Below, one piece after another: positions 27,216 through 58,540 of a DNA stretch of 64,000 nucleotides; the stretch's first letter is position 1; each line of letters begins with the position of its first letter. Origin of the DNA: a bacterium. GTDB taxonomy: Bacteria > Patescibacteriota > Minisyncoccia > Phycocordibacterales > VMGT01. The translations under genes and the position numbers were made by a program. Under the pieces are notes generated by a model, which did no database searches, was not told the origin of the DNA, and saw only the letters and a program-made list of their open reading frames with translations. The stretch covers positions 318 to 64,317 of the forward strand of contig JAUYPI010000003.1 in NCBI GenBank assembly GCA_030697645.1, in the 5' to 3' direction.

Positions 27216-27224
27216 TTTTTTTAA

Positions 27225-27700: not shown

Positions 27701-27734
27701 AACATTTATGGAGTAAAGTAACCGCTTTTTTTGA

Positions 27735-27871
27735 GAAGCTAAAATTTTCAATTTTCAATGTTTCAATGACGCAATGACGAGTGGCGGACGAATGTCGACG
27801 TGTTTGAAAATTGATTCATTGCAAAATTGATTGAAAATTGGAAATTGTAAATTGAAAATTCAGACTATACT
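27735..27871. repeat. palindromic element, family A (opposite orientation)
   Basis: Ends TATACT ATG, so the rplF mRNA is possibly leaderless. Confidence 0.75.
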
Positions 27872-28408
27872 ATGTCTCGTTACGGCAAACAACCTATCAC
27901 GATTCCCGTGGGCGTTGACGTCACCCTCGGCGACGGCGGTGAAATTACTGTCGGCGGTGCGCACGGTACGCTCGCGCGTGTTTTTCGTTCGGAGATCGAG
28001 ATTCGTAAAGATGACAATGCGCTCCTTCTCGCGCCGAGAGCGAAGACCGAGCTCGCCCACGCGCTCTGGGGCACCTACGCGGCGCACCTGCGCAACATGA
28101 TCCAGGGCGTGCGCGAGCCGTTTGTGAAGAAGCTGGTGATAGAGGGCGTCGGCTTTCGGGCAGAGGCCGCAGGCGAGACGCTGACGCTCCAGCTCGGCTT
28201 TTCGCACCCGGTGAAAGTCGCGATACCGAAAGGGATTGCGGCAAAGGTGGAGAAGGGCACCATCACGATTACCGGCGCGGACAAGGAGCTCGTGGGGGAA
28301 TTTGCAGCGCGGGTCCGGGCGCTCAAGAAGCCGGAGCCGTACAAGGGCAAGGGGATTCGCTATGAGGGTGAGGTCGTGCGTAGGAAGCAGGGGAAGAAAT
28401 CGGTGTAA
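27872..28408 (+). CDS. rplF: 50S ribosomal protein L6
   Basis: Sequence similarity. Confidence 0.9.
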   Translation: MSRYGKQPITIPVGVDVTLGDGGEITVGGAHGTLARVFRSEIEIRKDDNALLLAPRAKTELAHALWGTYAAHLRNMIQGVREPFVKKLVIEGVGFRAEAAGETLTLQLGFSHPVKVAIPKGIAAKVEKGTITITGADKELVGEFAARVRALKKPEPYKGKGIRYEGEVVRRKQGKKSV

Positions 28409-28419
28409 CGGGTGTAACG

Positions 28420-28495
28420 AGAGGGTAGAGAGTGGAAAGTGGAGAGTAGATTGTAGTCTACTTTCTCCCTTCCACTTTCTACTTTCCAAAATAAA
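28420..28495. repeat. palindromic element, family F (AGTGGAAAGTGGAGAG / CTCCCTTCCACTTTCTAC arms)
   Basis: Lies between rplF and rplR. Confidence 0.6.
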
Positions 28496-28503
28496 ACAAA
28501 TAT

Positions 28504-28848
28504 ATGCGCCCAACAAAACAGACACAACGTATTCGTCGCCACAAACGCATCCGCGCGAAGGTACGCGGTACCTCCGTGCGTCCCCGTCTCGCCGTGTATA
28601 AGTCCAATCGCTATCTTCACGTGCAGCTTGTTGATGACCGTACGGCGAAAACGATCGTTGGCATCATGAGTCGCGGTATCGGCTCGGGGAGCAAGGTCGA
28701 GCGCTCCCGGGTGGCAGGTGAGCAGCTTGCAAAAGCCGCGCGCGCAAAAGGCATCGAGCGCGTGGTGTTTGACCGTGGTGGCTTTAGCTTCAGAGGGAGG
28801 ATTGCGGCATGCGCAGAAGGGGCGAGATCAGGAGGACTTGTATTTTAG
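28504..28848 (+). CDS. rplR: 50S ribosomal protein L18
   Basis: Sequence similarity. Confidence 0.9.
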   Translation: MRPTKQTQRIRRHKRIRAKVRGTSVRPRLAVYKSNRYLHVQLVDDRTAKTIVGIMSRGIGSGSKVERSRVAGEQLAKAARAKGIERVVFDRGGFSFRGRIAACAEGARSGGLVF

Positions 28849-28957
28849 CTTTTAGTTGTTAGCTTATAGCTTTTAGAAGCTTCGAACGACTACGTCGCAA
28901 CGCGCGTGTACCGCAGTATCTCTAAAAGCTAACAGCTATAAGCTAAAAGCTAGAAAT
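28843..28957. repeat. palindromic element, family C (TTTTAGCTTTTAGC / GCTAAAAGCTA arms, core CGAACGACTACGTCGCAACGCG)
   Basis: Related copies at 58443-58540. Partial at 40597-40640. Arm motifs at 43337-43370 and 44070-44100. Confidence 0.7.
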
Positions 28958-28959
28958 TT

Positions 28960-29601
28960 ATGCCAGATCAAAGACCACAAGGACAAAGAGGAGGAGCGCG
29001 CGGGGCGAGACCGCCACGCGGGCAAGGAGGCGCTCGTCCTGAGCGCGCGCGCCCTCAGCGCGGCGGGCGCGCTGGTGGCCCGCGCGGCGGCGCAGAGCGC
29101 CGCCCGCGCCGCGGCGGGCCCGAAACATCAGACCGTTCACGTCAGTACAAGCCGGAGTTCGATCAAAAGATTCTCGACATCCGCCGTGTCGCGCGCGTTG
29201 TTTCCGGTGGGCGCCGATTTTCTTTCAGCGTGACGATTGTCGTCGGGAATCGCGCCGGCTCGGTCGGCGTCGGCCTCGGCAAGGCTGGGGACACGCCGCT
29301 TGCGATCGAGAAGGCAACGCGCGATGCCCGTAGAAATCTTATCGTCATCCCGCTCACCGAGAGCAAGTCGATCCCTCACGACACCGCAGCGAAGTATGGC
29401 GCGAGCATTGTGGAGTTCACGCCCGTCCGCGGACGCGGCCTCGTCGCGGGGAGCTCGGTGAGGAGCGTGCTTGAGCTCGCGGGCATCACCGACGTGTCCG
29501 CGAAAATTCATTCACGGAGTAAAAATAAGTTGAACAATGCGCGGGCGGCGGTGAAGGCGCTTGAGCAGTTTGTGTCGCATTCGACAAAAATCAAGGCATA
29601 A
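28960..29601 (+). CDS. rpsE: 30S ribosomal protein S5 with ~60-aa Arg/Gly-rich N-terminal extension
   Basis: S5 dsRBD plus C-terminal domain. ATG lies 2 bp after the repeat element. Confidence 0.9.
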   Translation: MPDQRPQGQRGGARGARPPRGQGGARPERARPQRGGRAGGPRGGAERRPRRGGPETSDRSRQYKPEFDQKILDIRRVARVVSGGRRFSFSVTIVVGNRAGSVGVGLGKAGDTPLAIEKATRDARRNLIVIPLTESKSIPHDTAAKYGASIVEFTPVRGRGLVAGSSVRSVLELAGITDVSAKIHSRSKNKLNNARAAVKALEQFVSHSTKIKA

Positions 29602-29784
29602 AGCGAATTGGGAACCCACAAGCTCCAAACCAAATAAATTCCAAGCTCCAACCAACAAGTTCCAAACAAACTTCAAATTCCAATGCATCAAATCTCAAAC
29701 ACGCACGTCGTGTTTGGAAATTGGATTTTGAGCATTGAGATTTGTTTGGAGACGGGTTTTTTGGAAATTGGAAATTCGTATCGT
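29600..29784. repeat. palindromic element, family B
   Basis: Explains the spurious N-terminus of ORF 29683..30240. Confidence 0.7.
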
Positions 29785-30240
29785 ATGCAACTCCATCAAT
29801 TATCGCGAACACATACTCATAAACACGCACGGCGCGTCGGCCGCGGCGGCAAGCGCGGCAAGACCTCGGGACGCGGCACGAAGGGGCAGCGCTCTCGCGC
29901 CGGGCACCGGATGCGCCCCGAGCTCCGCGACATCCTGAAGAAGCTCCCGAAGCGCCGCGGCTACGGCAAGAACCGCGCGCGCGGCGTGAACTCTTCGCGC
30001 GTGCGGCCGCTCGTTCTGAATGTCTCCGCGCTCGAGCGCACGTTTGCGGGAGGCGCGCGCGTTACTCCCGCCTCGCTCATCGCGGCAGGTCTCATTTCGA
30101 AGCGCGGCGGCAAAATGCCGCTTGTGAAGATCCTCAGCGACGGCGCGCTCACCAAGGCGCTCACGGTGAGCGGCTGCAGTGTCTCCGCTTCGGCGAGGGC
30201 GAAGATTGAGGGAGCGGGAGGGGGAATAAATCAAAAGTAA
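29785..30240 (+). CDS. rplO: 50S ribosomal protein L15 (no L30 gene between rpsE and rplO)
   Basis: Starts MQLHQLSRTHTHKHARRVGRGGKRG. Confidence 0.9.
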   Translation: MQLHQLSRTHTHKHARRVGRGGKRGKTSGRGTKGQRSRAGHRMRPELRDILKKLPKRRGYGKNRARGVNSSRVRPLVLNVSALERTFAGGARVTPASLIAAGLISKRGGKMPLVKILSDGALTKALTVSGCSVSASARAKIEGAGGGINQK

Positions 30241-30260
30241 AAAATCAAAAATTAAAAATC

Positions 30261-30520: not shown

Positions 30521-31014
30521 GATTTTACGTATGAGTAGATTGACTAAACTACACAAAAAGCGGAGGAGCTGACACTCGTCTTTGGTAGACTGTGTTCGTC
30601 CCATCCGCTCAAGGTGAGCGGTTTTTGTTTTGTCCGAACGATTGGACGATTGATTCTTTGTCAACAAAATAGGCCCCACGGCAAGAACGCATGGAGCGTT
30701 TTTAATTTCGATATTTTGAAATTTTGATATATCGAGGTGCCGGTGGCGGGCTAAAGCAAAAAGAATCAAATTAAGCAGGTAAAACCGTGCTTCGCACGGA
30801 CATTTCGAAATATCGATATATCGAAATTTCCGCGCGGAGCGCGGTAGCGGTTTTTCCGTTCCTCACAGGAATGGAAGCGCATATGGTGGATGCCTAGACT
30901 CCACATGGCGATGAAGGACGCGGCCTGGCGGCGATACGCTTCGGGGAGGTGCCTGGTAACCTTTGATCCGAAGATTTCCGAATGGGGAAACCCCTTTGCA
31001 TAAAACGCATTGAT

Positions 31015-31391
31015 CTGCCTGTATGTTTTGACTTTTGATTTTTGACAAAAAACCGACTGTCTGACACCTGACGTCAGAGCAGTCGGCCGCTTCGAACTCG
31101 CCCTCGATCCTTAACTTACATAGAGGATGAGGGAGAATGCGAGTAGTAAAAGCAATGCTGCGAGCATATACCAATATTTGTTGTTTTTATTGAGCTCGCG
31201 ATTTGCAGCCCCCAGCGCTTGCGCGGGCACTTCCTGCTCTTCCGTTCTGAGTAAGGAATGGGGATGCCTGTTATTGTGCATGGCATTGCTCCTAATCTAA
31301 GGTAAGAACTTTAAACTCACCCCGTGAGCTTACGTCACGAATATTTTATACTATAAGTATATTTTTGTCAAGAGTCAAAACATACAGGCAG
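31015..31391 (+). other. IVS-like insertion 1 in 23S (helix-9 region), AT-rich
   Basis: 18-bp terminal inverted repeats CTGCCTGTATGTTTTGAC / GTCAAAACATACAGGCAG. Shares internal TTGTCAAGAGTC with insertion 2. Carries ~57-codon ORFs on both strands; the antisense one ends in a hydrophobic helix. Confidence 0.6.
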
Positions 31392-31812
31392 AGGCATACC
31401 CAGGGAAGTGAAACATCTCAGTACCTGGAGGAAAAGAAAACAACCGTGCTTCGCACGGACATTTCGAAATATCGATATATCGAAATTTCCGCGCGGAGCG
31501 CGGCCATTCCCTTAGTAGCGGCGAGCGAAACGGGAGGAGCCTAAACCGTGCGCAGCACGGACATATCGATATTTCGAAATTTCGATATTTCCGCGCTGCG
31601 CGCGGTGTTGTACGGCAACGGCGTAGTTTAACTAGAGAAGTTACAAAGTGGTTTGTTAGCGGAATCTGCTGGAAAGCAGAGCCCCAGCGGGTAATAGCCC
31701 CGTACGCGAAAGCACGCCACCTTCTTTGCTGTTGTTCGTGAGTACCTCGGGACATGAATAGCCCGAGGGAATCTGGCAGGACTAACTGCCAAGGCTACAT
31801 ACGTGTGGAGAT

Positions 31813-31849
<37 letters not shown>

Positions 31850-32109
31850 CAGCCCGGTGAGGGCGGTGAAATAGACCTGAAACCATATGCGTACAAGGAG
31901 TCGGAGCTGCCGCACCTCATTGCATTCGGTGCGGACATTTCGATATTTCGAAATATCGATATATCGAAATGTCCACCGCGCCGAGTGTAGCGAGGTGCGG
32001 CGGTCACGGCGTGCCTATTGAAGAATGAGCCAACGAGTTGTCGTTTGTTGCCCGTCTAACCGCTTGTCGCGGGAAGGCATAGGGAAACCGAGTGTTAAAA
32101 GCGCGATCG

Positions 32110-32503
32110 CCTGCTCATATTTTTGGATTTTTATTAGTGGAAGTTAACTGAAACCGCCACGTTCATGTTAAACGTAGCGGTTTATCCCTGAGTCCAAGGA
32201 AGAGCGTCTTCCTCACCTTGTGAGGAAGAACCAGATTTTATCTGGAATGAGCTTTTGAAGGAAAGAGCCTGGAACAAGGAAATAAGCAAGTGCAATACAG
32301 ATCAAAAGCGGCCAATATATCCACCTTGGGACGAAATACCCGAGAAGATAGAAAACACCAGCAACGATACCAATAATGATATGACCTTTAAGGTTCATTT
32401 TCGTCTCCAATCTCGAATGAGGTGCCAGGGGGATGGGGGGTTCTCTATACAACAAATTAGTATAAATGTATTAATTTGTCAAGAGTCCAAAAATATGAGC
32501 AGG
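32110..32503 (+). other. IVS-like insertion 2 in 23S (helix-45 region, ~E. coli 1170), AT-rich
   Basis: Terminal inverted repeats CCTGCTCATATTTTTGGA / TCCAAAAATATGAGCAGG. Internal TTGTCAAGAGTC. Antisense ORF 32213..32455 encodes a small protein with two TM helices. Confidence 0.6.
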
Positions 32504-33784
32504 TACAGCAGCAAACGCCAGACCCGAAGCCGGGTGAGCTTGCCATGGGCAGGGTGAAGGCGATGGAAACATCGCTGGAGGCCCGAACCGGTCAGCCGTG
32601 CAAAACTGTCGGATGACCTGTGGCAAGGAGTGAAAAGCTAATCGAACTCGGTAATAGCTGGTTCTCTCCGAAATAGCTTTAGGGCTAGCGTTCTGTGTTC
32701 CTTCCGGGGGTAGAGCACTGGATGGAAAGAATAGGGAGCAATCTCGTCTTTCCAATCAAACTCCGAATACCGGAAGCACGCCGCACCTCATTGCATTCGG
32801 TGCGGACATATCGATATTTCGAAATTTCGATATGTCCGCCGCGCCGAGTGTAGCGAGGTGCGGCGGATAGCAGGGCAGTTAGACTATGGGGGCTAAGCTC
32901 CATTGGTCAAAAAGGGAAGAGCCTTTGATCTCCAGTTAAGGTCCCTAATACGGCGCTCAGTGCATCTTAAGGAAGTAGAGACCCACAGACAGTGAGGAGG
33001 TTGGCTTAGAAGCAGCCATCCTTTAAAGAAAGCGTAACAGCTCACTCATCGAGGGTTTCTGCGCCGCAGATTCACGGGGCTTAAGCGCCGAACCGAAACT
33101 GAGGATGCCGTGCGCAGCACGGACATATCGATATTTCGAAATTTCGATATTTCCGCGCTGCGCGCGGTGTGGTAGGAGAGCATCCTGCACCCGCAATGAA
33201 GCACGGGCGTGAGCTCCGTGTGGAGCGTGCAGGAGTGAGAATGTTGGCACAAGTAACCGCAATGCGGGTGAAAGCCCCGCACGCCGAAAGCCCAAGGTTT
33301 CCTTGGCGATGACAATCAGCCAAGGGTTAGTCGGGCCTTAGCCGATGGCGAAAGCCGGAGGTGATGGACACACGGTTAATATTCCGTGACCCGGATCCAT
33401 TTCGATGTGGTGACGGAGGAGATAAGCGGGGGCGCATTATTGGATTTGCGTCGCCCGTGCGAAGACGCGCCGCCTAGGTAAATCCGGACGGCACGCCGCC
33501 GCACCTCATTGCATTCGGTGCGGACATTTCGATATGTCGATATTTCGAAATGTCCGCCGCACCGAGTGTAGCGAGGTGCGGCGGTACCGTCGAGCGCGGT
33601 AGAAATTCCGGGGTTCGCCCCGGGAAATCCTCGCGAAGAGCCTTCCAAGAAAAACCACTAAGGCTAGGTGGATTCGGTCCGTACCGCAAACCGACACAGG
33701 TGGGCAGGTCGAGAAGACCAAGGCGAACGGGTGAGTGTTCCCCAAGGAACTCGGCAAAAAAGCAGCCGTAACTTCGGGATAAGG

Positions 33785-34330
33785 CTTGCCTTGTCGGGGC
33801 TGAAAGAAGGAAAATTTTGTTCTTTAAGGAGACGATCAATGGATAGCATAGGTGGGAGGCTGAATTATTGGAGCGGCGAAAAATCCAATAGAAATACCAG
33901 CCGTCAGTGGAATACCACCCTTGATCGTTTTCGTCCGGAAATTCGCTTAAAAACCGAGTTTCCGGTTGAGTTCAGTGGAGCAAATCGGGCGTTTAGTCGA
34001 GTGCTTCCATGCCGTGTAAAATAGCGCTTGTCTGATTTGCTCCGCCAGTCCAATGGAGCGGTCAGGCCGGAGAGTTCTCCTGCAATACGTGGGTGACCCA
34101 TGAGAGGTTGCTACGTTCCCTTGCAAGGTTCTGTAAAAATCTCCCGCCCTGCCGAGTGGTTGAAGTCCACGCCGCTCCAACCCGACCAATGGGGTAGATC
34201 ATGGATACTTTCTGGGATATTGGGAGTGATAACCTCCGAACCCAATTTCCGGAGTAGCAAGTATGCATGGTCTACTCCTTCAATCAATCGGGGGATGTCT
34301 CTGATATCCCCTCCTTCTTTCAGCTCCGAT
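33785..34330 (+). other. ~545-bp insertion in 23S domain IV (between CTTGTCGGGGCTGAAAGAAGG and CCTTCTTTCAGCTCC) containing a divergent copy of a domain-V segment
   Basis: GGATAGCATAGGTGGGAGGCT...GCCGTCAGTGGAATACCACCCTT duplicates the canonical block at 34990-35060. Confidence 0.45.
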
Positions 34331-34589
34331 GAGGCCGCAGCGAAAGTACCCCTGCCGACTGTTTACCAAAAACACAGCTCCCTGCGAACTCGCAAGAGAA
34401 TGTATAGGGGGTGATGCCTGACCAATGCCGGAAGGTCAAACAGTGGTGGTGACCGCATCACACGGCGTGTGATGCGGACATATCGATATTTCGAAATTTC
34501 GATATGTCCGCATCGCGCTTCGCGCGATGCGGTTGCTGGCCGCTGTAAGCCCCGGTGAATGTCGGCCATAACTATAATGGTCCTAAGGT

Positions 34590-34818
34590 CACGGCTCTCT
34601 TGATTTTTCAAGGGAGTCGTGAGGACTGGGACTATTATAGCGGTAAACAGAAAGTGCAAGCTACCTTATCGTGCGGTAACGCACGAATTAGTCCGCACCA
34701 CGACTCACATGAGAGGCCATACGTCGTGCTCCGACACCACTTTTTGGTTTCAGTCTTAGCTGAAACCAAAAAGTGGTGTCGGGTGAAGATATGGTCCTTC
34801 GCAAGAAGGAAAGCGAAG
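34590..34818 (+). other. compact ORF-less group I intron at the L1917 site
   Basis: 5' exon ends in U (CCTAAGGT). Intron ends in G. Exon ligation restores GGT|AGCGAAATTCC. P7-3' strand like GAAGATATGGTCC followed by a P9 hairpin. Confidence 0.6.
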
Positions 34819-35478
34819 AGCGAAATTCCTTGTCCTCTAATTAGGGACGCGCACGAATGGCATAACGAGTGGGGGACTGTCTCGGGGAACAGCCCGGTGA
34901 AAATACAATCCCGGTGAAGATGCCGGGTACCTGCAGCTAGACGAAAAGACCCTAGAAGCTTTACTATAACTTGATATTGGTCGTATGTTTCCACTGCGTA
35001 GCATAGGTGGGAGGCTTTGAAGCTCTGCTCTCGGGCAGCGTGGAGCCGTCAGTGAAATACCACTCTGTGGGAGTGTACGCTCTAACCTCGACGGCAAAAA
35101 CGGCGAGGGACAGTATCTGGTGGGTAGTTTTGTTGGGGCGACATCCTGAAAGTTCTGCGAAAGGAGGCCTTTCGCAGCGTCGTCCCGGATCGTCATTTAT
35201 TCCTGACGGTTCGAAGCCGTGCGTGGCACAGAATTTCCAATTTCCAATAACCAATTTCCAATAAAATGTCCAATGTTTCAATTTCCAATGTTCAAACGTT
35301 CATGTTTGAGATTTTGAATTTGAGATTTGGAATTTGTTTGGAAATTTAACACTTGGAGCTTGGAGCTTCCGCGCCGCGCGCGGCGAAGGGGATCCCGTAT
35401 GGCAACATGCGGGCAAACATCTTGCTATTTGCTGGAACAGCCGGCGTATCTGGCACTACCATGAGAGGAGGATGATAC

Positions 35479-35667
35479 ATGTATTATCTTTTACAGATCC
35501 AAACGAATGAGGAAATTATGTTCACCGAAAAAGATGATCACCGTGCGCTTCGAGAAGCGCGCAAGTATCTTTGGGAGCATGGAATAACGAAAGAGGACGG
35601 ATCAAAAGTTAAGCACGAAGTCACCGTTACCCTTTCAGGGTTACTGCGACGGATCAAAACATGGTGA
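35479..35667 (+). CDS. intron-encoded hypothetical protein (62 aa), no endonuclease motif
   Basis: Strong RBS GAGAGGAGGA 8 nt before the ATG. Low GC. Confidence 0.45.
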   Translation: MYYLLQIQTNEEIMFTEKDDHRALREARKYLWEHGITKEDGSKVKHEVTVTLSGLLRRIKTW

Positions 35668-35713
35668 AAATGTGACCAGTGCGGCCAACCAGCAGGGAAG
35701 GAGAAAATTACCA

Positions 35714-35950
35714 ATGAGTGCAGCAACACCAGTGGATGATCTTGGTGAAACAAAGACAAAGATAAATATTGTAAAGGAGTTAGACGATATTTTACACGAT
35801 TACAAGTCTGAACGCTTCAAGTTAGATACGGTGGCGTATCATGTATCAGTGCCTGCAGGAGAAACAGAGAAAGAAAGAGAACGATTAGCTAAGCAGACGC
35901 TGAAAAAATGTCTTTGGCTGGTAGTTAATTATCTCACCCTCAACGACTAA
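35714..35950 (+). CDS. intron-encoded hypothetical protein (79 aa; ORF track gives 35672)
   Basis: RBS GGGAAGGAG 9 nt before ATG 35714. Directly follows the previous ORF. No known homing-endonuclease family motif. Confidence 0.45.
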   Translation: MSAATPVDDLGETKTKINIVKELDDILHDYKSERFKLDTVAYHVSVPAGETEKERERLAKQTLKKCLWLVVNYLTLND

Positions 35951-36342
35951 ACGCAGGATTCCTTACCGACGGGCGATTTCGCTCGTCGGTAAGGAAAAGA
36001 TATAGTCTGATCTCCATGGCGACATGGAGAGGCACGCAGAAATGACGTGCCCGCGCCGTGCTTCGCACGGAAATTTAAATATTTAAACATTTAAACTTCC
36101 GCGCGGAGCGCGGCGGGCAACAACAATGCCTAAAAAGTAACGGAGGAGTCTATTAAGGTCGGCTAGGCGCGAATGGAAACCGTGCCGATAGTGTAAGGGC
36201 ACAAGCCGGCTTCACTGCGAGGCGTACATGCCAAGCAGATGCGAAAGCAGAGCCTAGTGAACCGACGGTTCGCTTTAGAAGCGGCCGAAGATTAACGGAT
36301 AAAAGCTACTCTAGGGATAACAGGCTGGTACCGCCCAAGAGT

Positions 36343-37205
36343 CAATGAGGCTCCCTCTGGCGGCAACGTCAGAGTAAACTGTGACTCAAATCGGTGAAAT
36401 CCAGCGTTCGCAATTTGCAATTTCTAATTCCCAATTTCGAATTAGTAGTTGATAATTCGTAATTGCGTCAGCTGGACAATACCGAGGGTAAGAGAACTTG
36501 AAATTTGTTATATGGAAACAAAACGCGCACAACGCGCTCGTGTGCTACCTCTCGACCAGAGGCAGCGTGAGATCGTTATCGGATCTCTCCTAGGAGACGG
36601 ACATTTGGCACGGACAACGCGAGGATATGCGTTCCGGGTCAATCACGGGATAGGACAGCGTGAGTATGTTAATTGGAAGTATCAGGAGCTCGAGTCGTTT
36701 ACGAACTCGAGGCCGAATACATGTGATCGATCGTACTATTTTCGCACCGTATCTCACCCGTACTTCGACGAGTTGCGTCGTGTGTTCTATGTTGGCAATC
36801 GAAAAATAATTCCAGAAATGCTTGAGGGCTGGTTGACGCCACTCGTGTTCGCCGTGTGGTTTATGGACGACGGCACGCGAGACGGAAAACAAGTTCGACT
36901 GAATACGCAATGCTTCAGAAGAGAAGAGCACGAACTGCTCGTGTTTCTTTTACAAGCTAAACTCGGGATAACGGCGACAATCAATCGAGATAAAGCCCAG
37001 TACCGTTTGCGCGTGTGCGAGAAAAGCATGCCGCGCTTTCGAGCACTGGTGTCCCCGTTGATTATTCCGAGCATGCGCTACAAGTTCTCCCCGTAACGAC
37101 TTCCGCATTTCACTGCGGGGACTGCGGGCTTAAAAAGCCGCAGTAAAACGTCACCGTCCCGAAAGGGACGAAGGTATAGTCTACCTCATGAGTAATCATG
37201 AAGTG
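36343..37205 (+). other. group I intron at L2449 (863 nt) encoding a LAGLIDADG endonuclease
   Basis: 5' exon ends U (CAAGAGT). Intron ends G. Ligated exons give CAAGAGT|CCATATCGCCGGCGG. GAAGGTATAGTC P7-3' at ~37172. Confidence 0.8.
36512..37096 (+). CDS. LAGLIDADG homing endonuclease (two-motif, single-chain)
   Basis: Motifs LLGDGHL and WFMDDGT. Start METKRAQRA; ORF track gives 36449. Confidence 0.85.
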   Translation: METKRAQRARVLPLDQRQREIVIGSLLGDGHLARTTRGYAFRVNHGIGQREYVNWKYQELESFTNSRPNTCDRSYYFRTVSHPYFDELRRVFYVGNRKIIPEMLEGWLTPLVFAVWFMDDGTRDGKQVRLNTQCFRREEHELLVFLLQAKLGITATINRDKAQYRLRVCEKSMPRFRALVSPLIIPSMRYKFSP

Positions 37206-37264
37206 CCATATCGCCGGCGGTGTTCGGCACCTCGATGTCGGCTCACCTCATCCCGGGGCTGGAG

Positions 37265-37550
37265 AAAACAGACCTTCTCTCCTTCGCGGAAACGCGAGGG
37301 TAATAAACGAGCTCAAAACGGTGAAGGCCTTGAGTTAAAGGTTAACGCCGTAGGAAGCCCACTAGTAATTAGTTCCTAGTAACTGGTAATTAGTGTGGCC
37401 CTCTAACGACTGAATCCCGCAAAATGCGGGATGAGATAGAACCATCGCCACGGGTTCTATAATACGGCTCGCACCTACGGTCCGTCTCAGAGGCGGACTA
37501 CGGTGAAGGCATAGTCTGATATCCGTAGTAATACGGGCAAACACAAACTG
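37265..37550 (+). other. small ORF-less group I intron near L2500 (boundaries ±5)
   Basis: Follows exon GGGGCTGGAG. Exon resumes AGGTCCCAAGGGTATAGCTG. GAAGGCATAGTCTG P7-3' plus P9 hairpin near the 3' end. Confidence 0.55.
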
Positions 37551-37606
37551 AGGTCCCAAGGGTATAGCTGTTCGCTATTTAAAGAGGTACGCGAGCTGGG
37601 TTCAGA

Positions 37607-37949
37607 CCGTCCAGGACGTGAATTATGAATGAAGAATCATGAGTCATGGATTGGACAGTCTGAACCCGCATCGAAACTTTTCGTCTATGAAAAATGAAAA
37701 AGGCCTAAACGCACTATACAGTGCGTCGGCCAAGGAACCCCACTATCGCTAAAGCTATGGTGGGCGAGACCAATCATATCACGGCGGTCGCCCGCAGTAA
37801 TGCGGGACGAAGAAGCTGACTATATCGGTGGAACCCTGTTTTACACAGGACAACACCGAGGGAAGTCCGCGTGACCCCGTAGAGACTACATGTCAGCCCT
37901 CCGATTTTATCGGAGAAAGGTATAGTCCAATGCACACAGTAATGTGTGG
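37607..37949 (+). other. small ORF-less group I intron near L2593 (boundaries ±5)
   Basis: Follows exon GCGAGCTGGGTTCAGA. Exon resumes (A)AACATGCGTGAGACAGGTTGGTC. GAAAGGTATAGTCC P7-3' near the 3' end. Confidence 0.55.
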
Positions 37950-38098
37950 AAACATGCGTGAGACAGGTTGGTCTCCTATCTGCTGCAGGCGTTGATTCTT
38001 GAGGGGAGTCGTTCCTAGTACGAGAGGACCGGAATGAACGAACCTCTGGTCTATCGGCTGTCCCGCCAGGGGCACCGCCGAGTAGCTATGTTCGGAAT

Positions 38099-38131
<33 letters not shown>

Positions 38132-38375
38132 AATCCCAAGATGAGGAATCGCGTCGCCGCATCACACGGAGTGTGATGCGGACATATCGATATTTCGATA
38201 TATCGAAATTTCCGCATCGCGCTTCGCGCGATGCGGCGGCATCGGCCCGTGGGAGATGACCACGTTGATAGGCACCAGGTGTACGCGCAGTAATGCGTTT
38301 AGCCGAGGTGTACTAATCCGCCGAAATTCCTGTGAGGAATAGAGGAACCGCGTCGTACCTCGCTCGGGCTCGGTG

Positions 38376-38530
38376 CGGAATTTCCAATTTCCAATTTTAC
38401 AATTTCCAAATAATTTCCAATGACCAAATTTCCAATTTCCAAACACGACGCCGGATGTCGCTCGTCGTTTGAAAATTGACTCATTGAAAATTTATTGAAA
38501 ATTGAAAATTGATAATTGAAAATTCCGTGT
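38376..38530. repeat. palindromic element, family A/B hybrid (CCAATTTCC arms, core CAAACACGACGCCGGATGTCGCTCGTCGTTTG) in the 23S-5S spacer
   Basis: Seen directly. Confidence 0.7.
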
Positions 38531-40551: not shown

Positions 40552-40639
40552 CGTGATCTCTTACAGGCGCGACCCTTGGTCGCGCCTGCTTCCCTTTTTC
40601 ATCTAAAAGCTATAAGCTAAAAGCTATAAGCTCGCACCT

Positions 40640-41419: not shown

Positions 41420-41515
41420 AGAATAAGACAATTGACATGTAACATTTGACCATTGACCACGAACGAGAGCGCCCGTCGTCGTCAAATGTCAAAGGTCAAT
41501 TGTCAAATGTTTTTA
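41420..41515. repeat. palindromic element, family E (TTGACATGTAACATTTGACCATTGACC / GTCAAATGTCAAAGGTCAATTGTCAAATG arms, core CGAACGAGAGCGCCCGTCGTCG)
   Basis: Same architecture as families A-D. Sits upstream of the FtsW/RodA start. Confidence 0.6.
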
Positions 41516-41547
41516 CGCAATTCCATGCTTCGATATTTGGCTTTTGT

Positions 41548-42675
41548 ATGTCTTTCCATGTCCTTCGCCACATCGACTGGCTTCTCCTCGGCGCAGCGGC
41601 GCTCATTGTGTCTGTCGGCCTCGTGACCATGTACTCCTTTCGCGGGGAGAACATTTTTTTTGCGCGGCAGATTGTCTGGGGGGCAGGAGCGATTACGATG
41701 GCGTGTGCTTTAAGCTTTATCGACTTTCATTTTTTGCGAAGGCCCGGAGTGCTCGTGGGCCTTTTTGGGGCGTTTTGCGTCCTCCTTCTCTTCTTGATTT
41801 TTTTCGGTACGAGCGTGCGTGGGGTGCAGAGCTGGCTTGATCTCGGGTCATTTCGCGTACAGCCGGCGGATCCGGCGAAGCTCGTCCTCATTCTCCTCCT
41901 CGCGAAATACTTTTCGCGCCGTCACATCGAGATCGCGCACGTGCGCCATATTTTGGTCTCGGGGTTCTATGCAGGTGTGCTTTTTTTGCTTGTGCTCTTG
42001 CAGCCGGATTTCGGATCGGCGATCATCATCGCATCGCTCTGGCTTGGCATGGTCGCGATATCCGGCATCTCGAAGCGCCACCTCGCTTTGGTCCTCGCGA
42101 CTGGGCTACTTGGCGCGAGCACGTTGTGGCTCTTTGTCTTCGAAGATTACCAGCGTGCACGTCTCGTCAGCTTCCTCAATCCGATGGCCGATCTCCAAGG
42201 TGCCGGATACAACGCGTATCAGTCCGTCGTCGCGATTGGCTCCGGCGGGCTCTTTGGTAAGGGCATCGGCTTTGGGAGTCAATCGCGGCTGCGCTTTCTT
42301 CCCGAATACGAGACGGATTTCATCTTTGCAGCGTTTGCAGAGGAGTGGGGGTTTATCGGCGTCGTGATGCTCTGTGCGCTCTTCGCCATTATTATCTGGC
42401 GGCTTCTCCGGGCATCGATCCGTGGCGCGACTAATTTTGAGACGCTCTTTGCTGCTGGGCTCGCCGTGCTCATCATGAGTCACGCGACTGTCCATATCGG
42501 AATGAATCTAGGCCTCCTTCCGGTCACCGGCACGCCGCTGCCGTTTATGAGCTACGGTGGCTCGCACCTCTTTACCGAATTCATCGGCATCGGGATTTTA
42601 ATGGGCATGCGGCGCTATGGCCGCGCCACACATCGAAGCGAGCTCGCACGGGAGGAGGTGGATGTAACGCCATAG
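41548..42675 (+). CDS. SEDS-family peptidoglycan glycosyltransferase (FtsW/RodA)
   Basis: Multi-TM. Conserved PFMSYGGS and GxGxxxG regions. ATG at 41548 preferred over 41446. Confidence 0.8.
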   Translation: MSFHVLRHIDWLLLGAAALIVSVGLVTMYSFRGENIFFARQIVWGAGAITMACALSFIDFHFLRRPGVLVGLFGAFCVLLLFLIFFGTSVRGVQSWLDLGSFRVQPADPAKLVLILLLAKYFSRRHIEIAHVRHILVSGFYAGVLFLLVLLQPDFGSAIIIASLWLGMVAISGISKRHLALVLATGLLGASTLWLFVFEDYQRARLVSFLNPMADLQGAGYNAYQSVVAIGSGGLFGKGIGFGSQSRLRFLPEYETDFIFAAFAEEWGFIGVVMLCALFAIIIWRLLRASIRGATNFETLFAAGLAVLIMSHATVHIGMNLGLLPVTGTPLPFMSYGGSHLFTEFIGIGILMGMRRYGRATHRSELAREEVDVTP

Positions 42676-42746: not shown

Positions 42747-42880
42747 ATTTCCAATTATCAATTTTCAATTTTCAGTCAATTTTGCAATGAATCAATTTTC
42801 AAACACGACGTCGTTCGTCATTGAGCCATTGAAACATTGAAAATTTACTGAAAATTGAAAATTGTAAATTGAAAATTATG
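42747..42880. repeat. palindromic element, family A
   Basis: Seen directly. Confidence 0.75.
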
Positions 42881-42923
42881 CGTATGATACTACCGGTGGA
42901 GTTTTGTACTCGAGTTTCGCTGC

Positions 42924-44186
42924 TCAGTTTTCATATACCGCGTAAGTCCTTGTTATCATTCGCTCGAGCGAAAACATTCGTGCGCTCTCGCGCGCGCTCG
43001 TGCCGAGTCGTGCTCTAAGCTCGATGTCGCTCGCGAGGCGCTCGATTGCCTCGGCGAGCGCGGTGCTGTCGTTGGGCGCAACGAGCAAACCGGTTTCCTC
43101 ATGTATGACGATCTCCGGTATGCCGCCGACCCGTGTTGCAATAATCGGCACGCCTGCGTGGAGCGCCTCGATGAGCACGTACGGCAGGCCTTCTTTGCGC
43201 GAGGGGAGTACAAAAAGGTCAAAGGCAGGCAGAAGCTCTGCTGCGTTTTCAATGTGTCCGGTGAGCACAACATGCTCGCCGAGGTCGCGCTCGGCGATGA
43301 GCGAGGCGAGCGAACCGCGGAGTTCACCGGAACCGATTAGAAAAGCTTTTAGCTGATAGCTTTTAGCTTTTAGGAGTGCGAGCGCCTCGATGAGCGTGTC
43401 GAGTCCTTTGTTTGGATGTAATTCCGCGATAGTTCCGATCCATAGATCAGGCACTGGCGTTTGAAATTTGACATTTGAAATTTTATTGGAAATTGGAAAT
43501 TGCTTGCCCGCCGGAGCTTCAGTGAAGGCGGGGAAATTAGAAATTGCGGCACGTGTCAGGATTTCTTTCCGTGCCTCTGTGGTAGGCATGTATTCTGTTG
43601 TTTCGATGCCGTTCCATATAGTTACCACTTTGCGCCGCAGCCCCGGCCATTTCTCGACAATCCGTCGATCGTGCTCCGAGACCGTGATCGTTTGGTGTGC
43701 GAGAAGCATCGTAAACCACGTGAATATTTTGATGAGTTGGCGTTGCCAGAACGGACGTGGCTCGAGGTGGGGAAGGCCGTGGAGAGTAACGATGATTTTG
43801 GGGACTGGTAACTGGTAACTAGTAACTAGGACGACGAATCGGTACGCGCGCGCCGCGAGCACTCCGATGCCGGCGGCTTTGGAGGAGTTGAGATGGATGA
43901 CATCGGGTTGCTCGCGGCGGTAGAGCGCAAGCAGAGCGAAGAACGCGCGAACGTCCTTCGTGATGCCGACGTCGCGCTCGAGGGCGAGAACGGGAACCAC
44001 CCGTACTCCTGCTGCTTCGAGCTTGTCTTTGAGGGCCCCGTCGCCGCCGAGAGCAACGATTGCCTCCGAGCTGTTAGCTTTTAGCTTATAGCTTTTAGCA
44101 GCGACGGCGAGATCGTAGACGTAGCGTTGCGCCCCGCCCCAGTTTGATTTCGTTATTACGTAAAGAATTTTTTGGTTATTTGACAT
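42924..44186 (-). CDS. glycosyltransferase family 4
   Basis: C-terminal EGLPYVLIEALHAGVPIIAT GT4 motif. Contains three in-frame repeat-arm motifs (see findings). Confidence 0.8.
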   Translation of the reverse strand: MSNNQKILYVITKSNWGGAQRYVYDLAVAAKSYKLKANSSEAIVALGGDGALKDKLEAAGVRVVPVLALERDVGITKDVRAFFALLALYRREQPDVIHLNSSKAAGIGVLAARAYRFVVLVTSYQLPVPKIIVTLHGLPHLEPRPFWQRQLIKIFTWFTMLLAHQTITVSEHDRRIVEKWPGLRRKVVTIWNGIETTEYMPTTEARKEILTRAAISNFPAFTEAPAGKQFPISNKISNVKFQTPVPDLWIGTIAELHPNKGLDTLIEALALLKAKSYQLKAFLIGSGELRGSLASLIAERDLGEHVVLTGHIENAAELLPAFDLFVLPSRKEGLPYVLIEALHAGVPIIATRVGGIPEIVIHEETGLLVAPNDSTALAEAIERLASDIELRARLGTSARESARMFSLERMITRTYAVYEN

Positions 44187-44522: not shown

Positions 44523-44639
44523 AAAATCTTCCTGAGCAAGAGGACAATCGCAACCGCGGTTGTCCTCGCTCTGTTTTACAGCGTATGATATAGGAAGTTG
44601 GCAGAAAGCAGACGGCTGATAGCCGAAAGCTGCGCTAGC

Positions 44640-45989
44640 ATGACTATCCGCTCCAAAACTGAATCCCTGCTTCTCTTCATCGGCGATGTCGCGCTGTTTT
44701 TTGCTGCGCTGTGGGTGACACTCCTCGTGCGCTACGCCGCCGTACCGTCAGCGCACATCTGGACGCTCCACTTCGCACCATTCGCGCTCCTCTTTGTCGC
44801 GTGGGTCATCGTCTTCTACATTGCGGGCCTCTACGGCAAGCACACGCTTATGCTGAAGAGCAAGCTCCCGACGACGATCCTCAACGCCCAGCTCGTGAAT
44901 ATGGCCCTCGCCGTGGGCTTCTTTTATTTCATCCCGCTCTTCGTCATTACGCCGAAGGTACACCTTTTCATCTATCTCGGCATCTCATTCGTGATGATCC
45001 TCCTCTGGCGCATCTACGGCCACCGAGCGTTTGGTTTCCGCAAGCGGGAGAAGGCGATCCTCATCGGCTCCGGCGAGGAGATGCGTGAGCTCCGCGACGA
45101 GGTCAACCACAACCGTAGTTATTCGCTCTCGTTCGTTTCCTCGGTGGATCTCGACGAGATCGATGCTCTCGACTTTGAGGAGGAGATCATCCGACGGCTC
45201 TATAGCGAGGGGATCGGCGTCGTCGTTATCCACTTCCGCTCCGAGAAGGTGGAGCCGGTCCTTCCCCGTCTCTATAACTTGATTTTCTCCCACATTCGTT
45301 TCATAGACATGCACCGCGTGTACGAGGACATTTTTGACCGCGTGCCGCTCTCGCTCCTCCAGTATAGCTGGTTCCTCGAGAACATCTCCTTCGCGCCAAG
45401 CCGGCTCTACGACATCCTGAAGCGCGCGATGGACCTTACGCTCTCGGCCCTCGCGGGACTTGTGACGCTGCCGCTCTACCCACTGGTCTATTGCGCGATA
45501 AAGCTCGACGACGGCGGGCCGATTTTTGTCTTTCAGACGCGTGTGGGCCAGAATAATCATCCGGTGCGCCTCATTAAGTTTCGTACCATGAGTTTTGACG
45601 ATGGCGGGCAGTGGGGAGACGCAAACTATAATGAAGTGACTCGAGTGGGAAATTTTTTGCGCAGGACGCGTCTTGATGAGCTTCCGCAGCTCTTTAACGT
45701 GTTACGTGGCGATATTTCACTGATAGGCCCACGTCCGGAATTTCCAGAGGCGGTAAAAGAGTACGAAGCGCAGATTCCATATTACGGCGTACGCCATCTT
45801 ATAAAGCCGGGGCTTTCCGGCTGGGCACAGATACATCATCAAAAACACCCACATCACAGCGTTGACATTGTGGAGACCGAGAACAAGCTCGCCTACGACC
45901 TCTACTACATCAAAAACCGTTCATTCATGCTTGATGTGAAAATCGCGGTTAAGACACTGCGGATATTGGCGTCAAGGAGTGGGCTCTAA
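44640..45989 (+). CDS. polyprenyl glycosylphosphotransferase (bacterial sugar transferase, WbaP/ExoY family)
   Basis: C-terminal DELPQLFNVLRGDISLIGPRP motif. N-terminal TM helices. ORF track TTG 44598; ATG 44640 chosen. Confidence 0.8.
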   Translation: MTIRSKTESLLLFIGDVALFFAALWVTLLVRYAAVPSAHIWTLHFAPFALLFVAWVIVFYIAGLYGKHTLMLKSKLPTTILNAQLVNMALAVGFFYFIPLFVITPKVHLFIYLGISFVMILLWRIYGHRAFGFRKREKAILIGSGEEMRELRDEVNHNRSYSLSFVSSVDLDEIDALDFEEEIIRRLYSEGIGVVVIHFRSEKVEPVLPRLYNLIFSHIRFIDMHRVYEDIFDRVPLSLLQYSWFLENISFAPSRLYDILKRAMDLTLSALAGLVTLPLYPLVYCAIKLDDGGPIFVFQTRVGQNNHPVRLIKFRTMSFDDGGQWGDANYNEVTRVGNFLRRTRLDELPQLFNVLRGDISLIGPRPEFPEAVKEYEAQIPYYGVRHLIKPGLSGWAQIHHQKHPHHSVDIVETENKLAYDLYYIKNRSFMLDVKIAVKTLRILASRSGL

Positions 45990-52388: not shown

Positions 52389-53750
52389 ATGCACAAGCCA
52401 CGATTATGGGCTATCGTGATTCTCCTCACCGGGGTTGCGGCGGGGTATCTTATATTCGCGAGCGAGCGCGCGGGCGGGCGATTTGCCTTTAAGCTCGGGC
52501 TTGATCTTGCGGGCGGCACGCAGCTTGTCTACCGCGCTGACCTCTCGAGCCTCGAGGAGGGTGAGACGCGCGAGGCCATGCAGGCGCTGCGGGACGTCGT
52601 GGAGCGCCGCGTTAACCTTTTCGGCGTCTCGGAGCCCTTGGTCCAGCTCGAGCGATCAAGCGCCTTGGCCCTCGGGGAGCGCGAGGAGCGGCTCATTGTT
52701 GAGCTCCCGGGCGTTACCGACATTGACGAGGCGGTCGCTCTTATCGGCCAGACGCCGCTTCTCGAGTTCAAGCTCCTCTCGCGCGAAGCCTCGCCCGAGG
52801 TAGCAGGTGCCAGCGACGTCGCAGAGAACGGTTCCACCCTCCACCCTCCACCCTCCACCTTCGAGTCCACTGGCCTCACTGGCCGCTTTCTGAAGCGCGC
52901 GCAGCTTCAGTTCACCGGCGGGGGTCAGAGCGAGGCATTTGCCGAGCCGGTGGTCGCGCTTCAGTTCAACTCTGAGGGCGCGGAGCGCTTCGCCGCGATC
53001 ACGCGCGAGCACGTTGGCGAAGTGCTCGCCATTTTTCTCGACGGTAAGCCGATCACGACGCCGGTGATCCGCGACGAGATCACCAGCGGCGAGGCTATTA
53101 TTACCGGCTCATTTACACCCGAGGCCGCGCGTGAGCTCGTGCGCGATCTTAACCTCGGCGCACTGCCGGTGCCGATTGAACTCATCTCAACGCAGAACGT
53201 CGGCGCGACGCTTGGGCGCGAGGCGCTCGACGCTGGCGTCAAGGCCGGGCTCGCGGGTCTTGCCGCGGTTGCCGTTTTCCTTATATTTTGGTATCGCCTC
53301 GAGGGCGCGGTAGCATCCCTTGCGCTCGCGCTCTACGTAATCGCAATGCTCGCGCTCTTCAAGCTGGTACCCGTGACACTCACCGCGGCTGGTATCACGG
53401 GCTTCATCCTCTCGCTCGGTATGGCGGTTGATGCGAACATTCTCATCTTCGAGCGCATTAAGGATGAGCGGCTGGGCGGGGGGGCGCGTACTGATGCGAT
53501 CGCCGCGGGTTTCAAGCGCGCGTGGGATCCGATCCGCGACGCCAACCTCTCGAGCCTCATCACCGCCGCGGTGCTCTTCTGGTTCGGCACCTCCCTCGTC
53601 CAGGGCTTTGCACTCACATTCGGGATCGGCGTCGTAGTCTCGATGTTCACTGCCGTGACGATTTCCCGCACGCTCCTTGTGGCGACCGAGACGGGGCAGC
53701 ACCGTCTCGAAATCAGAAGCACGCATCATCCCGCTGGCAGACGAATTTGA
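52389..53750 (+). CDS. secD: protein translocase subunit SecD
   Basis: LGLDLAGGTQLVY and C-terminal RND-like TM block (ILSLGMAVDANILIFERIKDE). ATG 52389; track start 52221. Confidence 0.8.
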   Translation: MHKPRLWAIVILLTGVAAGYLIFASERAGGRFAFKLGLDLAGGTQLVYRADLSSLEEGETREAMQALRDVVERRVNLFGVSEPLVQLERSSALALGEREERLIVELPGVTDIDEAVALIGQTPLLEFKLLSREASPEVAGASDVAENGSTLHPPPSTFESTGLTGRFLKRAQLQFTGGGQSEAFAEPVVALQFNSEGAERFAAITREHVGEVLAIFLDGKPITTPVIRDEITSGEAIITGSFTPEAARELVRDLNLGALPVPIELISTQNVGATLGREALDAGVKAGLAGLAAVAVFLIFWYRLEGAVASLALALYVIAMLALFKLVPVTLTAAGITGFILSLGMAVDANILIFERIKDERLGGGARTDAIAAGFKRAWDPIRDANLSSLITAAVLFWFGTSLVQGFALTFGIGVVVSMFTAVTISRTLLVATETGQHRLEIRSTHHPAGRRI

Positions 53751-58442: not shown

Positions 58443-58540
58443 CGTTTTAGCTTTTTGCTGTTAGCGTATAGCTTTTAGCATGACGGCGAGGCTTCTAAAA
58501 ACTAACAGCTATAAGCTAAAAGCTTGTATATTTTTGTTGT
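58443..58540. repeat. palindromic element, family C
   Basis: Lies between tRNA-Trp and tRNA-Thr. Confidence 0.7.

Follow-up and report, generated by a model that had tools for sequence, protein, structure and literature searches.

How does repeat DNA come to be translated within a conserved enzyme, and what becomes of it there? The question is raised by a gene for a glycosyltransferase of family GT4 in the window, the stretch of 64,000 nucleotides of bacterial DNA analyzed here, whose positions are counted from its first letter. A first-pass annotation, made from the letters alone, had noticed that pieces resembling the arms of palindromic repeat elements lie in frame inside this gene. The pieces are copies of DNA repeat modules that occur throughout the genome and are not products of selection at the protein level. 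They belong to the same families as intergenic elements, keep one frame, lie in loops, persist at orthologous sites, form a series of related units, are uniform within a genome and occur widely. Within genes, only frame-keeping, stop-free single arms are found, and at permissive places. The sites of the arrays are old and shared, and the sequences of the arrays are young and genome-specific.

Four repeat arrays in a glycosyltransferase gene

The arrays are tandem repeats of seven nucleotides. In the GT4 gene, Tandem Repeats Finder (TRF) reports period-7 arrays of AGCTTTT (4.4 copies, site 1), ACTGGTA (3.4 copies at 43804-43827, site 2) and AGCTTTT (4.3 copies, site 4), all of them short and imperfect, with 82-94% matches and 3.4-4.4 copies. 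The three strings quoted in the first-pass annotation are all present, with coordinates that were off by a few bases only, and the in-frame peptides that it gave (KAKSYQLKA, LVTSYQLPV and AAKSYKLKA) are correctly translated. It had overlooked one place, site 3, which brings the number of embedded pieces to four (Table 1).

Three of the sites occupy equivalent positions in the AlphaFold2 model of the protein, between the end of a helix and the start of a strand. Site 1 encodes AKSYKLKANS (residues 30-40) at the end of helix 18-32 and in the loop preceding strand 40-46, and adds a net five residues relative to array-free orthologues. Site 2 encodes LVTSYQLPVP (residues 120-129) in the loop joining helix 102-122 to strand 130-135, with a net gain of about 11 residues over array-free homologues. 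Site 4 encodes LKAKSYQLKA (residues 272-281), which begins in the last part of helix 262-273, passes through a loop and runs into the start of strand 279-284; the site is neutral in length, aligning residue for residue with orthologue sequence of the type LAKKNHSLFY and differing from BshA by a single residue. In domains of the Rossmann type, loops that lead from helix to strand face away from the substrate-binding edge. The remaining piece, site 3, is translated as part of ISNFPAFTEAPAGKQFPISNKISNVKFQT in a disordered linker between the two domains (residues 218-244) with a predicted local distance difference test (pLDDT) score below 50, and accounts for about 26 net residues of linker length compared with array-free homologues. 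The proposal that the pieces fall at loop-like positions of the GT-B fold thus agrees with the structural model.

Site 3 differs from the others in its make-up. On the coding strand, AATTTCC/AATTTCA heptamers run up to a terminal CAAACG, as they do in the long arms at 35232-35300 and 38379-38445, and a GC hairpin of 30 nt (43503-43532) interrupts them. Folded as RNA, the site shows no excess of structure (z +0.49). All four pieces are single arms without a partner arm. The GT4 gene is an outlier in the window, holding 4 of the 11 arrays scored within predicted coding sequences, several of the others being doubtful: very short tracts, one GC-rich tract, and some probably located upstream of the actual start codon.

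Table 1. Heptamer arrays, hairpin elements and their host genes in the window
Feature	Position	Strand	Units, product or fold	Basis
GT4 (GT-B) glycosyltransferase gene	42924-44186	-	420 aa	ORF, Pfam, fold
GT4 site 1, family-C arm	44069-44099	-	CTAAAAG CTATAAG CTAAAAG CTAACAG CT (coding strand)	TRF, consensus
GT4 site 2, complete family-D arm	43800-43829	-	CTAGTTACTAGTTACCAGTTACCAGTCCCC (coding strand)	TRF, consensus, arm comparison
GT4 site 3, family-B-type arm split by GC hairpin	43460-43546	-		sequence, TRF
GT4 site 4, family-C arm	43344-43373	-	CTAAAAG CTAAAAG CTATCAG CTAAAAG CT (coding strand)	TRF, consensus
Array in ValRS gene (19789-21975)	20128-20161	-	ATACAAN x4, encodes TIQNTRYKIQDT	TRF, orthologues
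Array in SecD gene, between P1 subdomains	52833-52859	+	TCCACCC x3.9, encodes STLHPPPST	TRF
Reference family-C hairpin, L18-S5 spacer	28843-28952		left arm TTTTAGC-type, right arm CTAAAAG-type	-46.3 kcal/mol, z -5.8
Family-C copy between tRNAs	58445-58524
Family-C copy, single arm	40603-40632
Reference family-D hairpin, upstream of L14	25151-25255			-51.5 kcal/mol, z -7.4
Family-D copy	22693-22770
Family-D copy	27235-27309
Family-A hairpin just 3' of GT4 stop codon	42742-42880			-44.5 kcal/mol, z -8.1

The gene that carries these arrays has the features of a GT4 enzyme. Its open reading frame (ORF) matches PF00534 (Glycos_transf_1, 3.7e-40) and PF13439 (Glyco_transf_4, 8.2e-19), its model has a mean pLDDT of 89.8, and Foldseek relates the model to HepE, BshA and MshA (E 2e-23, TM 0.75-0.86). 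Both domains, the GT-B fold of two Rossmann domains and the E-x7-E region are present, with E332 and E340 invariant among the aligned homologues. The gene calls in the window come from a heuristic of our own, and the genes discussed were checked by Pfam. The gene is identical, arrays included, across three independent assemblies; the arrays are therefore not an assembly artefact. The idea that the gene is a pseudogene was rejected on account of its intact ORF, conserved catalytic columns and confident fold.

Identity with the intergenic elements

Period 7 dominates the TRF output for the window, with 54 rows compared with 22 for the next commonest period. Merging yields 57 arrays, of which 44 lie between genes even though coding sequence makes up about 72% of the window; at least six unrelated heptamer families occur in the 64 kb. 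Arrays in spacers mostly form inverted pairs around a variable core, giving hairpins of 85-140 nt whose RNA folds reach -44 to -52 kcal/mol (z -5.8 to -8.1). The arms have a near-fixed size that is the same in spacers and in genes: (CTAAAAG)x4 plus CT in family C, that is 30 nt, 4.3 units or ten codons, and CTAGTTACYAGTTACYAGTTACSAGTCCCC, likewise 30 nt, in family D.

The assignment of the GT4 motifs to families C and D, first proposed from the letters alone, is borne out by consensus searches whose yields lie far above those from shuffled sequence. With up to three mismatches allowed, the family-C consensus has 13 matches at five loci of the window (0.00 expected from shuffles) and the family-D consensus 18 matches at five loci (0.01 expected). 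The copy at site 2 equals the right arm of an intergenic element (25225-25259) at 27 of 30 nt. Since this match extends to both non-repeat ends, CCTAG... and ...AGTCCCC, site 2 is a complete family-D arm and not a look-alike. A family-D arm had also been placed inside a group I intron of the 23S rRNA gene; a D-like array with three mismatches does occur there (37365-37390), but the intron match itself (37259-37538) is below threshold, at 30 bits compared with a gathering score of 50.

Side observations on the intergenic elements are recorded here. In the ribosomal-protein operon at 22200-30260 (L14, S8, L18, S5 and neighbours), nearly every spacer holds a heptamer-arm hairpin of 100-140 nt, and these elements abut the stop and start codons. 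The family-A element 3' of the GT4 gene, together with 45 nt of unique spacer, is missing from two other assemblies of the same strain, 99.98% identical (L004 and L005, compared at 42768-42923); their junction lies at the microhomology CAATTTTCA/CAGTTTTCA, and the remaining arm supplies the last codon and the stop of the GT4 gene. An array of four GTCAAAT units (41481-41510) lies just upstream of the likely FtsW start, and the same family is translated elsewhere, as VKCQMSN in a TsaD gene (L082) and as NVNCQMS at site 2 of the GT4 homologue P0014.

Why two families encode one peptide

Families C and D had been described as different in DNA yet alike in encoding SY(Q/K)L. The shared peptide is real and is no coincidence that calls for an explanation at the protein level, the units being one or two substitutions apart (CTAAAAG and TTACCAG). 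Because seven is not a multiple of three, three units always yield the same seven codons. In a perfect CTAAAAG array, all frames of either orientation run into a stop (LKAKS*K, LLAFSF*). Such an array is open only where CTATAAG takes the place of the unit read as C-TAA-AAG, with the tyrosine codon TAT instead of TAA. Family C is thus limited to one orientation, one frame and a TAA-to-TAT unit, and its peptide is always KSY(K/Q)LKA. A TTACCAG array is open in one orientation only, where it gives LPVTSYQ. The relatedness of the C and D units (YTAMMAG), together with the avoidance of stops, hence produces S-Y-(K/Q)-L without selection on the peptide. By the same logic, the reverse of the TAACTGA repeat described by MacGregor encodes SVISYQL.

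This bears on the explanation by chance similarity or by a protein-level motif, in which SYxL or lysine-rich peptides would be selected for a role in the enzyme. A pattern x-[ST]-x-[YF]-x-L-x-[TA] does recur at site 2 of many homologues, which favours such a motif; recurrent Y-x-L, however, follows from the related units and the avoidance of stops. Essentially no matches are expected at the DNA level, the family-D copy includes arm termini that are not part of the repeat, and the same sites encode unrelated peptides in other genomes, so that this explanation is scarcely credible.

Same sites and other units in orthologues

A scan of a species-representative genome collection with the GT4 protein returned no close relative (best 41%, in Taylorbacteria), and contigs with orthologues were therefore fetched by exact protein match. 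The DNA of six orthologous genes, at 45-72% identity, was compared with that of the window. All 17 heptamer arrays in the seven genes fall at the four sites; the site-1 array of the P0003 type was taken from a separate complete gene, L085.

Site 1 holds family-C arrays in the window and in P0002 and an array of the ATACAAG type in the P0003-type genome; P0004, P0005, P0006 and P0010 have none there. Site 2 has AGTTACC in the window, CTAAAAG in P0002, CCTACAA in P0010, ACAATCT (4.7 copies) in P0004, TGTATCT in P0006, a degenerate array in P0005, and a complete arm-core-arm element (TGTATCT...AATACAA) in P0003. The linker at site 3 is built of AATTTCC/AATTTCA in the window, ATACAAA in P0003, AATTTTC (4.4 copies) in P0004 and CAATTTTCAAAC in P0006, with no array detected in P0005 or P0010; in P0002 it holds an unrelated inverted-repeat element of 111 nt. 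Site 4 carries CTAAAAG in the window and P0002, AAGATAC (4.3 copies) in P0003, CCTACAA in P0010, ATCTAAA in P0004 and GACTACG in P0006, and none in P0005. The peptides of other genomes at these sites, such as NFQFSIF, IQDTRYK and DYGLST, are unrelated to those of the window.

The units are not a random assortment. They form single-substitution neighbours, from CTAAAAG (window, P0002) to CTACAAG (P0010) and ATACAAG (P0003), and to CTACAAT and CTAAAAT (P0004). The window and P0010 have the ten codons and their phase in common at site 4, and the same A-to-C change separates their units (CTAAAAG and CTACAAG). A genome tends to use one unit, family C filling sites 1, 2 and 4 of P0002 and the ATACAAG type all four sites of L085. 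The P0003 genome also has intergenic heptamer arrays, including a family-C arm orthologous in position to the single arm at 40603-40632 of the window, and in L046, a relative with few arrays overall, the GT4 gene holds just one degenerate array. At sites 1 and 4, the arrays of the window agree with those of P0002 at 54 of 60 nt (90%; 27 of 30 each), compared with 74% identity for the rest of the gene.

If the resemblance to repeat DNA were due to chance, array-free orthologues could carry the same residues at these positions. They carry other residues, and three of the loops are shorter. Whether the pieces are lineage-specific insertions, as was suggested at first, has a divided answer: array-free homologues do differ and the protein is longer at sites 1-3, but orthologues have arrays at the same sites and site 4 adds no length. 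The presence of arrays with other units at shared sites points to a widespread repeat system and not to a one-off insertion.

A separate element was seen in two of these genes. It is about 111 nt long, has inverted ends of 18 nt (GTCCGACATCCGATGTCC) and lies at site 3 of P0002 (L001 1420-1540) and at site 2 of P0003 (L002 8140-8270). It is translated in one frame (VRHPMSP...SRTSDV) at these two different sites, which resembles the insertion of a whole Rickettsia palindromic element (RPE). A search of the window with its inverted repeat (GACATCCGATGTC) gave matches at chance level.

Other host genes

The search for arm arrays in further coding sequences, which had been proposed as a check, shows that the genes for valyl-tRNA synthetase (ValRS) and SecD in the window behave like the GT4 gene. 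The ValRS array lies in a variable loop that separates the catalytic domain from the one that binds the anticodon. An orthologue at 89% identity keeps the ATACAAN family, while one at 74% has GNGTGGA (4.7 copies), encoding SVEGGEWRVENA, at the identical twelve codons; in other orthologues the loop is shorter by 3-5 residues and shows no periodicity. At the position of the SecD array, an orthologue at 89% identity has SNLQSPTSNFQPT.

Beyond the window, an exact 23-mer of the family-C arm (CTAAAAGCTATAAGCTAAAAGCT) is present in at least 120 metagenome contigs, several of them, judged by their record names, from 0.1-µm groundwater fractions. From these, 80 loci were fetched (533 kb, G+C content 0.29-0.57); having been chosen by exact match, they are a biased set. 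Of the 83 occurrences of the 23-mer in them, 51 (about 60%) lie within stop-free ORFs of at least 180 codons, always in the open frame KSYKLKA. Intergenic matches usually have an inverted partner nearby and those in ORFs do not. The hosts are housekeeping genes: Mur ligases, MiaA (three), UvrC (three, at the same site), class I tRNA synthetases, MnmA, TGT, TsaD, aminotransferases, GT4 and enolase. The enolase module belongs to a clean insertion of 15 residues, relative to a solved structure, at the junction of the N- and C-terminal domains. TsaD has three hot sites, filled in its orthologues by family C, by family A (KFSIFNAQFSI) or by further heptamer peptides (KFQVSSFKFQ), and one orthologue has VKCQMSNVKC at a fourth place near the N-terminus. 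Period 7 leads the tandem-repeat census of the 533 kb with 196 TRF rows, and among the other period-7 arrays, a set not selected by unit, 50 of 113 lie deep inside long ORFs.

The list of hosts bears on the proposal that the GT4 gene is a phase-variable contingency locus, in which slipped-strand mispairing of heptamers would make a surface glycosyltransferase alternate between on and off. In its favour, the host gene encodes a glycosyltransferase of the cell envelope and holds 4 of the 11 arrays in coding sequences (several of the 11 doubtful), and some orthologues have perfect tracts (AAGATAC x4.3 in P0003, AATTTTC x4.4 in P0004). The tracts of the window, however, are short and imperfect, and no difference in copy number appears across the three assemblies, the comparison being of assemblies and not of reads. 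From genome to genome, arrays keep a fixed length of about 30 nt, and they also occur in essential genes that could not be switched, such as those for ValRS, SecD, TsaD, Mur ligases and enolase. Phase variation is highly improbable.

The family-C arm and its relatives were also met outside these hosts. In type IV pilin-like genes (L114 4750-4830, L107 3030-3110, L089, L125 and L051), a C arm lies in the leader peptide right before the G|FTL(I/L)E cleavage motif, with the hairpin's left arm and core either upstream of the start codon or across it. The C arm is absent from viral contigs of IMG/VR. D-type arrays (GTTACYAG x3) were seen in 24 stretches of viral contigs in that database (L170-L193), several contigs having four copies.

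Origin and maintenance of the arrays

On the account considered probable here, the GT4 pieces are repeat modules of the DNA that permissive loops tolerate and that concerted evolution renews. This genome and many related Patescibacteria-type genomes carry several families of tandem heptanucleotide arrays of near-fixed size, and single arms have entered coding sequence at places where the protein would accept almost any peptide. In the GT4 enzyme such places would be the interdomain linker and three alpha-to-beta loops, on that face of the Rossmann domains which points away from the catalytic cleft. Copies that keep the frame and lack stops would be the only ones to survive in genes, their hairpin partner missing. 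The sites would have been colonized long ago and have persisted since, with the arrays kept periodic and updated by exchange with other copies of the same genome through ectopic gene conversion, and another family would now and then replace the resident array. Orthologous loops would thus come to carry different units across genomes, often related by one substitution. Since arrays in genes cannot slip by single units without breaking the frame, the intergenic copies would serve as the reservoir. The encoded peptides are presumably neutral, without a specific function, and the enzyme would stay functional; gene conversion or a copy-paste process is the likely means of spread.

Several observations weigh against this account. 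No target-site duplications were evident when the flanks were inspected, an inspection that was not a systematic test. The window proteins include no transposase, RAYT or other mobilizing gene, the only candidate being a serine recombinase (1369-3102). No insertion event was caught, and the sole presence/absence difference between strains, the missing family-A element of L004 and L005, resembles a deletion at microhomology and not an insertion. The arrays at GT4 site 4 and in ValRS are neutral in length, which plain insertion would not lead one to expect. In ValRS, moreover, the units ATACAAN and GNGTGGA are unrelated, so that homology-dependent gene conversion cannot explain that replacement. 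The exact 23-mer, kept across 29-57% G+C content in a set that was selected by exact match, suggests that the sequence itself is constrained, as would not be expected of a purely neutral element. The account also presumes that the arrays are translated and that the enzyme is active. Copies that add no length, replacement by unrelated units and the constancy of the 23-mer across G+C content keep two further explanations alive.

The first is an active cassette or homing system, or a molecular drive, in which modules are written into existing array sites with their length kept and are maintained by machinery. Such writing would be done by a dedicated enzyme, or by biased DNA uptake followed by recombination, as for uptake signal sequences. 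This would fit the swap, at equal length and position, to unrelated units in ValRS and to another family at GT4 site 2, the dialect-like series of single-substitution units, the use of one family at all four GT4 sites in L085, and the finding of the exact 23-mer at orthologous places of UvrC, MiaA and TsaD although the genomes differ greatly in G+C content. It would also fit the intergenic inverted pairs, an arrangement that the uptake sequences of Neisseria have as well. Arrays of 30 nt are, however, unlikely to arise by point mutation, and the six or more unrelated families in one 64-kb window differ from a single uptake motif per species. Clean net insertions exist too (15 residues in enolase, 11 at GT4 site 2), no candidate enzyme is found among the window proteins, and the exact-match set is biased by its selection. 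The explanation is judged unlikely. A broader form of it can be put forward only tentatively, and with slightly more confidence: that tandem-heptamer cassettes of about 30 nt constitute a previously undescribed class in Patescibacteria-type genomes, actively written into fixed sites and overwriting them. On that reading, few sequence families would be kept across 29-57% G+C content, and the fixed sites would include identical permissive loops of housekeeping enzymes in one genome after another. A homing or gene-conversion enzyme, or else a drive, may carry out the process, which would be distinct from classical transposition and from slippage.

The second explanation holds that the arrays are cis-acting signals. 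A nucleoid protein, an RNA-binding protein or an RNase would bind or process them in DNA or mRNA, or translation would pause at them where domains meet; the copies in genes would be retained for that function. Spacers of the ribosomal-protein operon are nearly saturated with hairpin elements, arms lie directly upstream of or overlap start codons and pilin leader peptides, the arrays are better conserved than the rest of the GT4 gene, and a comparable proposal was made for TAACTGA repeats (PMC4679880). Arrays within genes are also often found at domain junctions (the GT4 linker, ValRS, SecD and enolase), but junctions are simply the most permissive places as well. Unrelated units at one site among orthologues speak against a site-specific signal, and the copies in genes have no hairpin partner. 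A cis-acting role is accordingly judged quite unlikely.

Relation to known repeat systems

The peptides encoded by RPEs lie at the protein surface, where the fold tolerates them, and the original reports of these elements are said to be those of Ogata and colleagues in 2000. RPEs are small palindromic repeats fused in frame into unrelated genes of metabolism and housekeeping and present between genes as well (PMC10969869). The likeness to RPEs that was noticed at first holds for the way of working, where RPEs are the nearest parallel, repeat DNA within conserved genes being tolerated as an in-frame peptide at positions compatible with the fold; it fails for the architecture. RPEs are whole elements of about 150 bp with a conserved peptide, whereas the copies in the window are single arms, 30-87 nt long, of tandem heptamers; a whole arm-core-arm heptamer element is in frame only at site 2 of P0003. 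Unlike in RPEs, the family found at an orthologous site here changes from one genome to another, and some copies leave the length unchanged. The host is also not Rickettsia but of the Patescibacteria type (the protein homologues are named Paceibacteria or Parcubacteria), so that architecture and host set the two systems apart.

Heptamer repeats, for their part, include the STRR sequences of cyanobacteria, a class that resembles the present arrays. In structure, the closest case is that of MacGregor (2015), who described TAACTGA repeats in Beggiatoaceae, Cyanobacteria and Bacteroidetes, mostly intergenic and also in ribosomal-protein operons (PMC4679880). They have stops in all frames in one direction and are translated in the other orientation as LSVISYQ in some ORFs (PMC4679880). 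As here, they are tandem heptanucleotide arrays of few copies (at least three), mainly intergenic, with period 7 over-represented. The family-D units TAACTGG and TAACTAG match TAACTGA at six of seven positions and give VTSYQLP; the other families of the window are unrelated to it. In the TAACTGA system one unit dominates, and copies in ORFs lie mostly at protein ends or in hypothetical proteins, whereas here there are several families, inverted hairpin arms and a fixed size, and the arrays occupy loops inside conserved enzymes, at places that orthologues have in common.

MITEs, miniature transposable elements with inverted repeats, and the REPIN, ERIC, RU and Coxiella QMITE repeats are likewise small and non-coding, with inverted ends, hairpin potential, many copies in spacers and occasional in-frame fusion (PMC10969869). 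The intergenic elements of the window share these features, being 85-140 nt long with inverted heptamer arms and no coding gene. They differ in that their terminal inverted repeats are themselves tandem heptamers, and no GTAG tag, parent insertion sequence or RAYT was seen in the window. To our knowledge, persistence and turnover of families at fixed protein sites are not a property of MITEs.

Uptake signal sequences (USS) of Haemophilus and the DNA uptake sequences (DUS) of Neisseria form inverted pairs between genes; within genes they occupy particular frames at weakly constrained positions, with length kept, and they vary between lineages as dialects. Their presence in coding regions was reportedly examined by Findlay and Redfield in 2009. 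Each lineage, however, has one motif of 9-12 nt, while here there are multiple heptamer families of about 30 nt, at least six in 64 kb, and no single dominant motif, and none of the observations ties the arrays to competence. The literature searched, whose coverage was incomplete, held no description of these modules, their peptides or the turnover of families at the same site. Both in-frame repeat DNA and heptamer repeats are known, and it is their present combination that is apparently new and widespread.

Implications for genomes of uncultured bacteria

Proteins of reduced, uncultured bacteria would be routinely extended or rewritten at fixed loops by repeat DNA found throughout the genome. 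Low-complexity inserts with a periodicity of seven residues affect gene calling, alignment and phylogeny of Patescibacteria proteins. The same inserts provide a natural map of permissive insertion sites in GT4, ValRS, SecD, TsaD, UvrC, MiaA and enolase. With different units at the same site, the spread and homogeneity of tiny repeats that lack a transposase become testable by comparative genomics.

Other features of the window

The GT4 gene lies between a gene for FtsW/RodA (41446-42675) and one for a Bac_transf sugar transferase (44598-45989), a synteny kept in relatives. At the start of the window, an AAAATCA array (4.4 copies, 316-346) is translated as KIKNQNAKIKI within a fragment of undecaprenyl-diphosphate synthase. 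A large serine recombinase gene, the candidate named above, lies between tRNA genes at 964-1034 and 2903-2984 in a region (964-3102) of lower G+C content (0.42) and may belong to an integrated element.

Within the 23S rRNA gene, the stretches 35306-36029, 36449-37096, 37259-37538 and 37735-37949 comprise one group I intron above threshold, two below and an ORF for a LAGLIDADG endonuclease; the D-like array at 37365-37390 sits in the weakest of the intron matches. In a scan of the whole window, the archaeal large-subunit rRNA model scored highest. The 23S region (30862-38336, 7.4 kb) contains at least nine copies of an AT-rich perfect palindrome of about 40 nt, GCGGACAT(A/T)TCGATATTTCGAAATTTCGATAT(G/T)TCCGC, at 30805-34502 and 38187-38212. 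Some of these copies have identical longer flanks, 30780-30840 being the same as 31440-31500 and 31555-31610 the same as 33110-33170.

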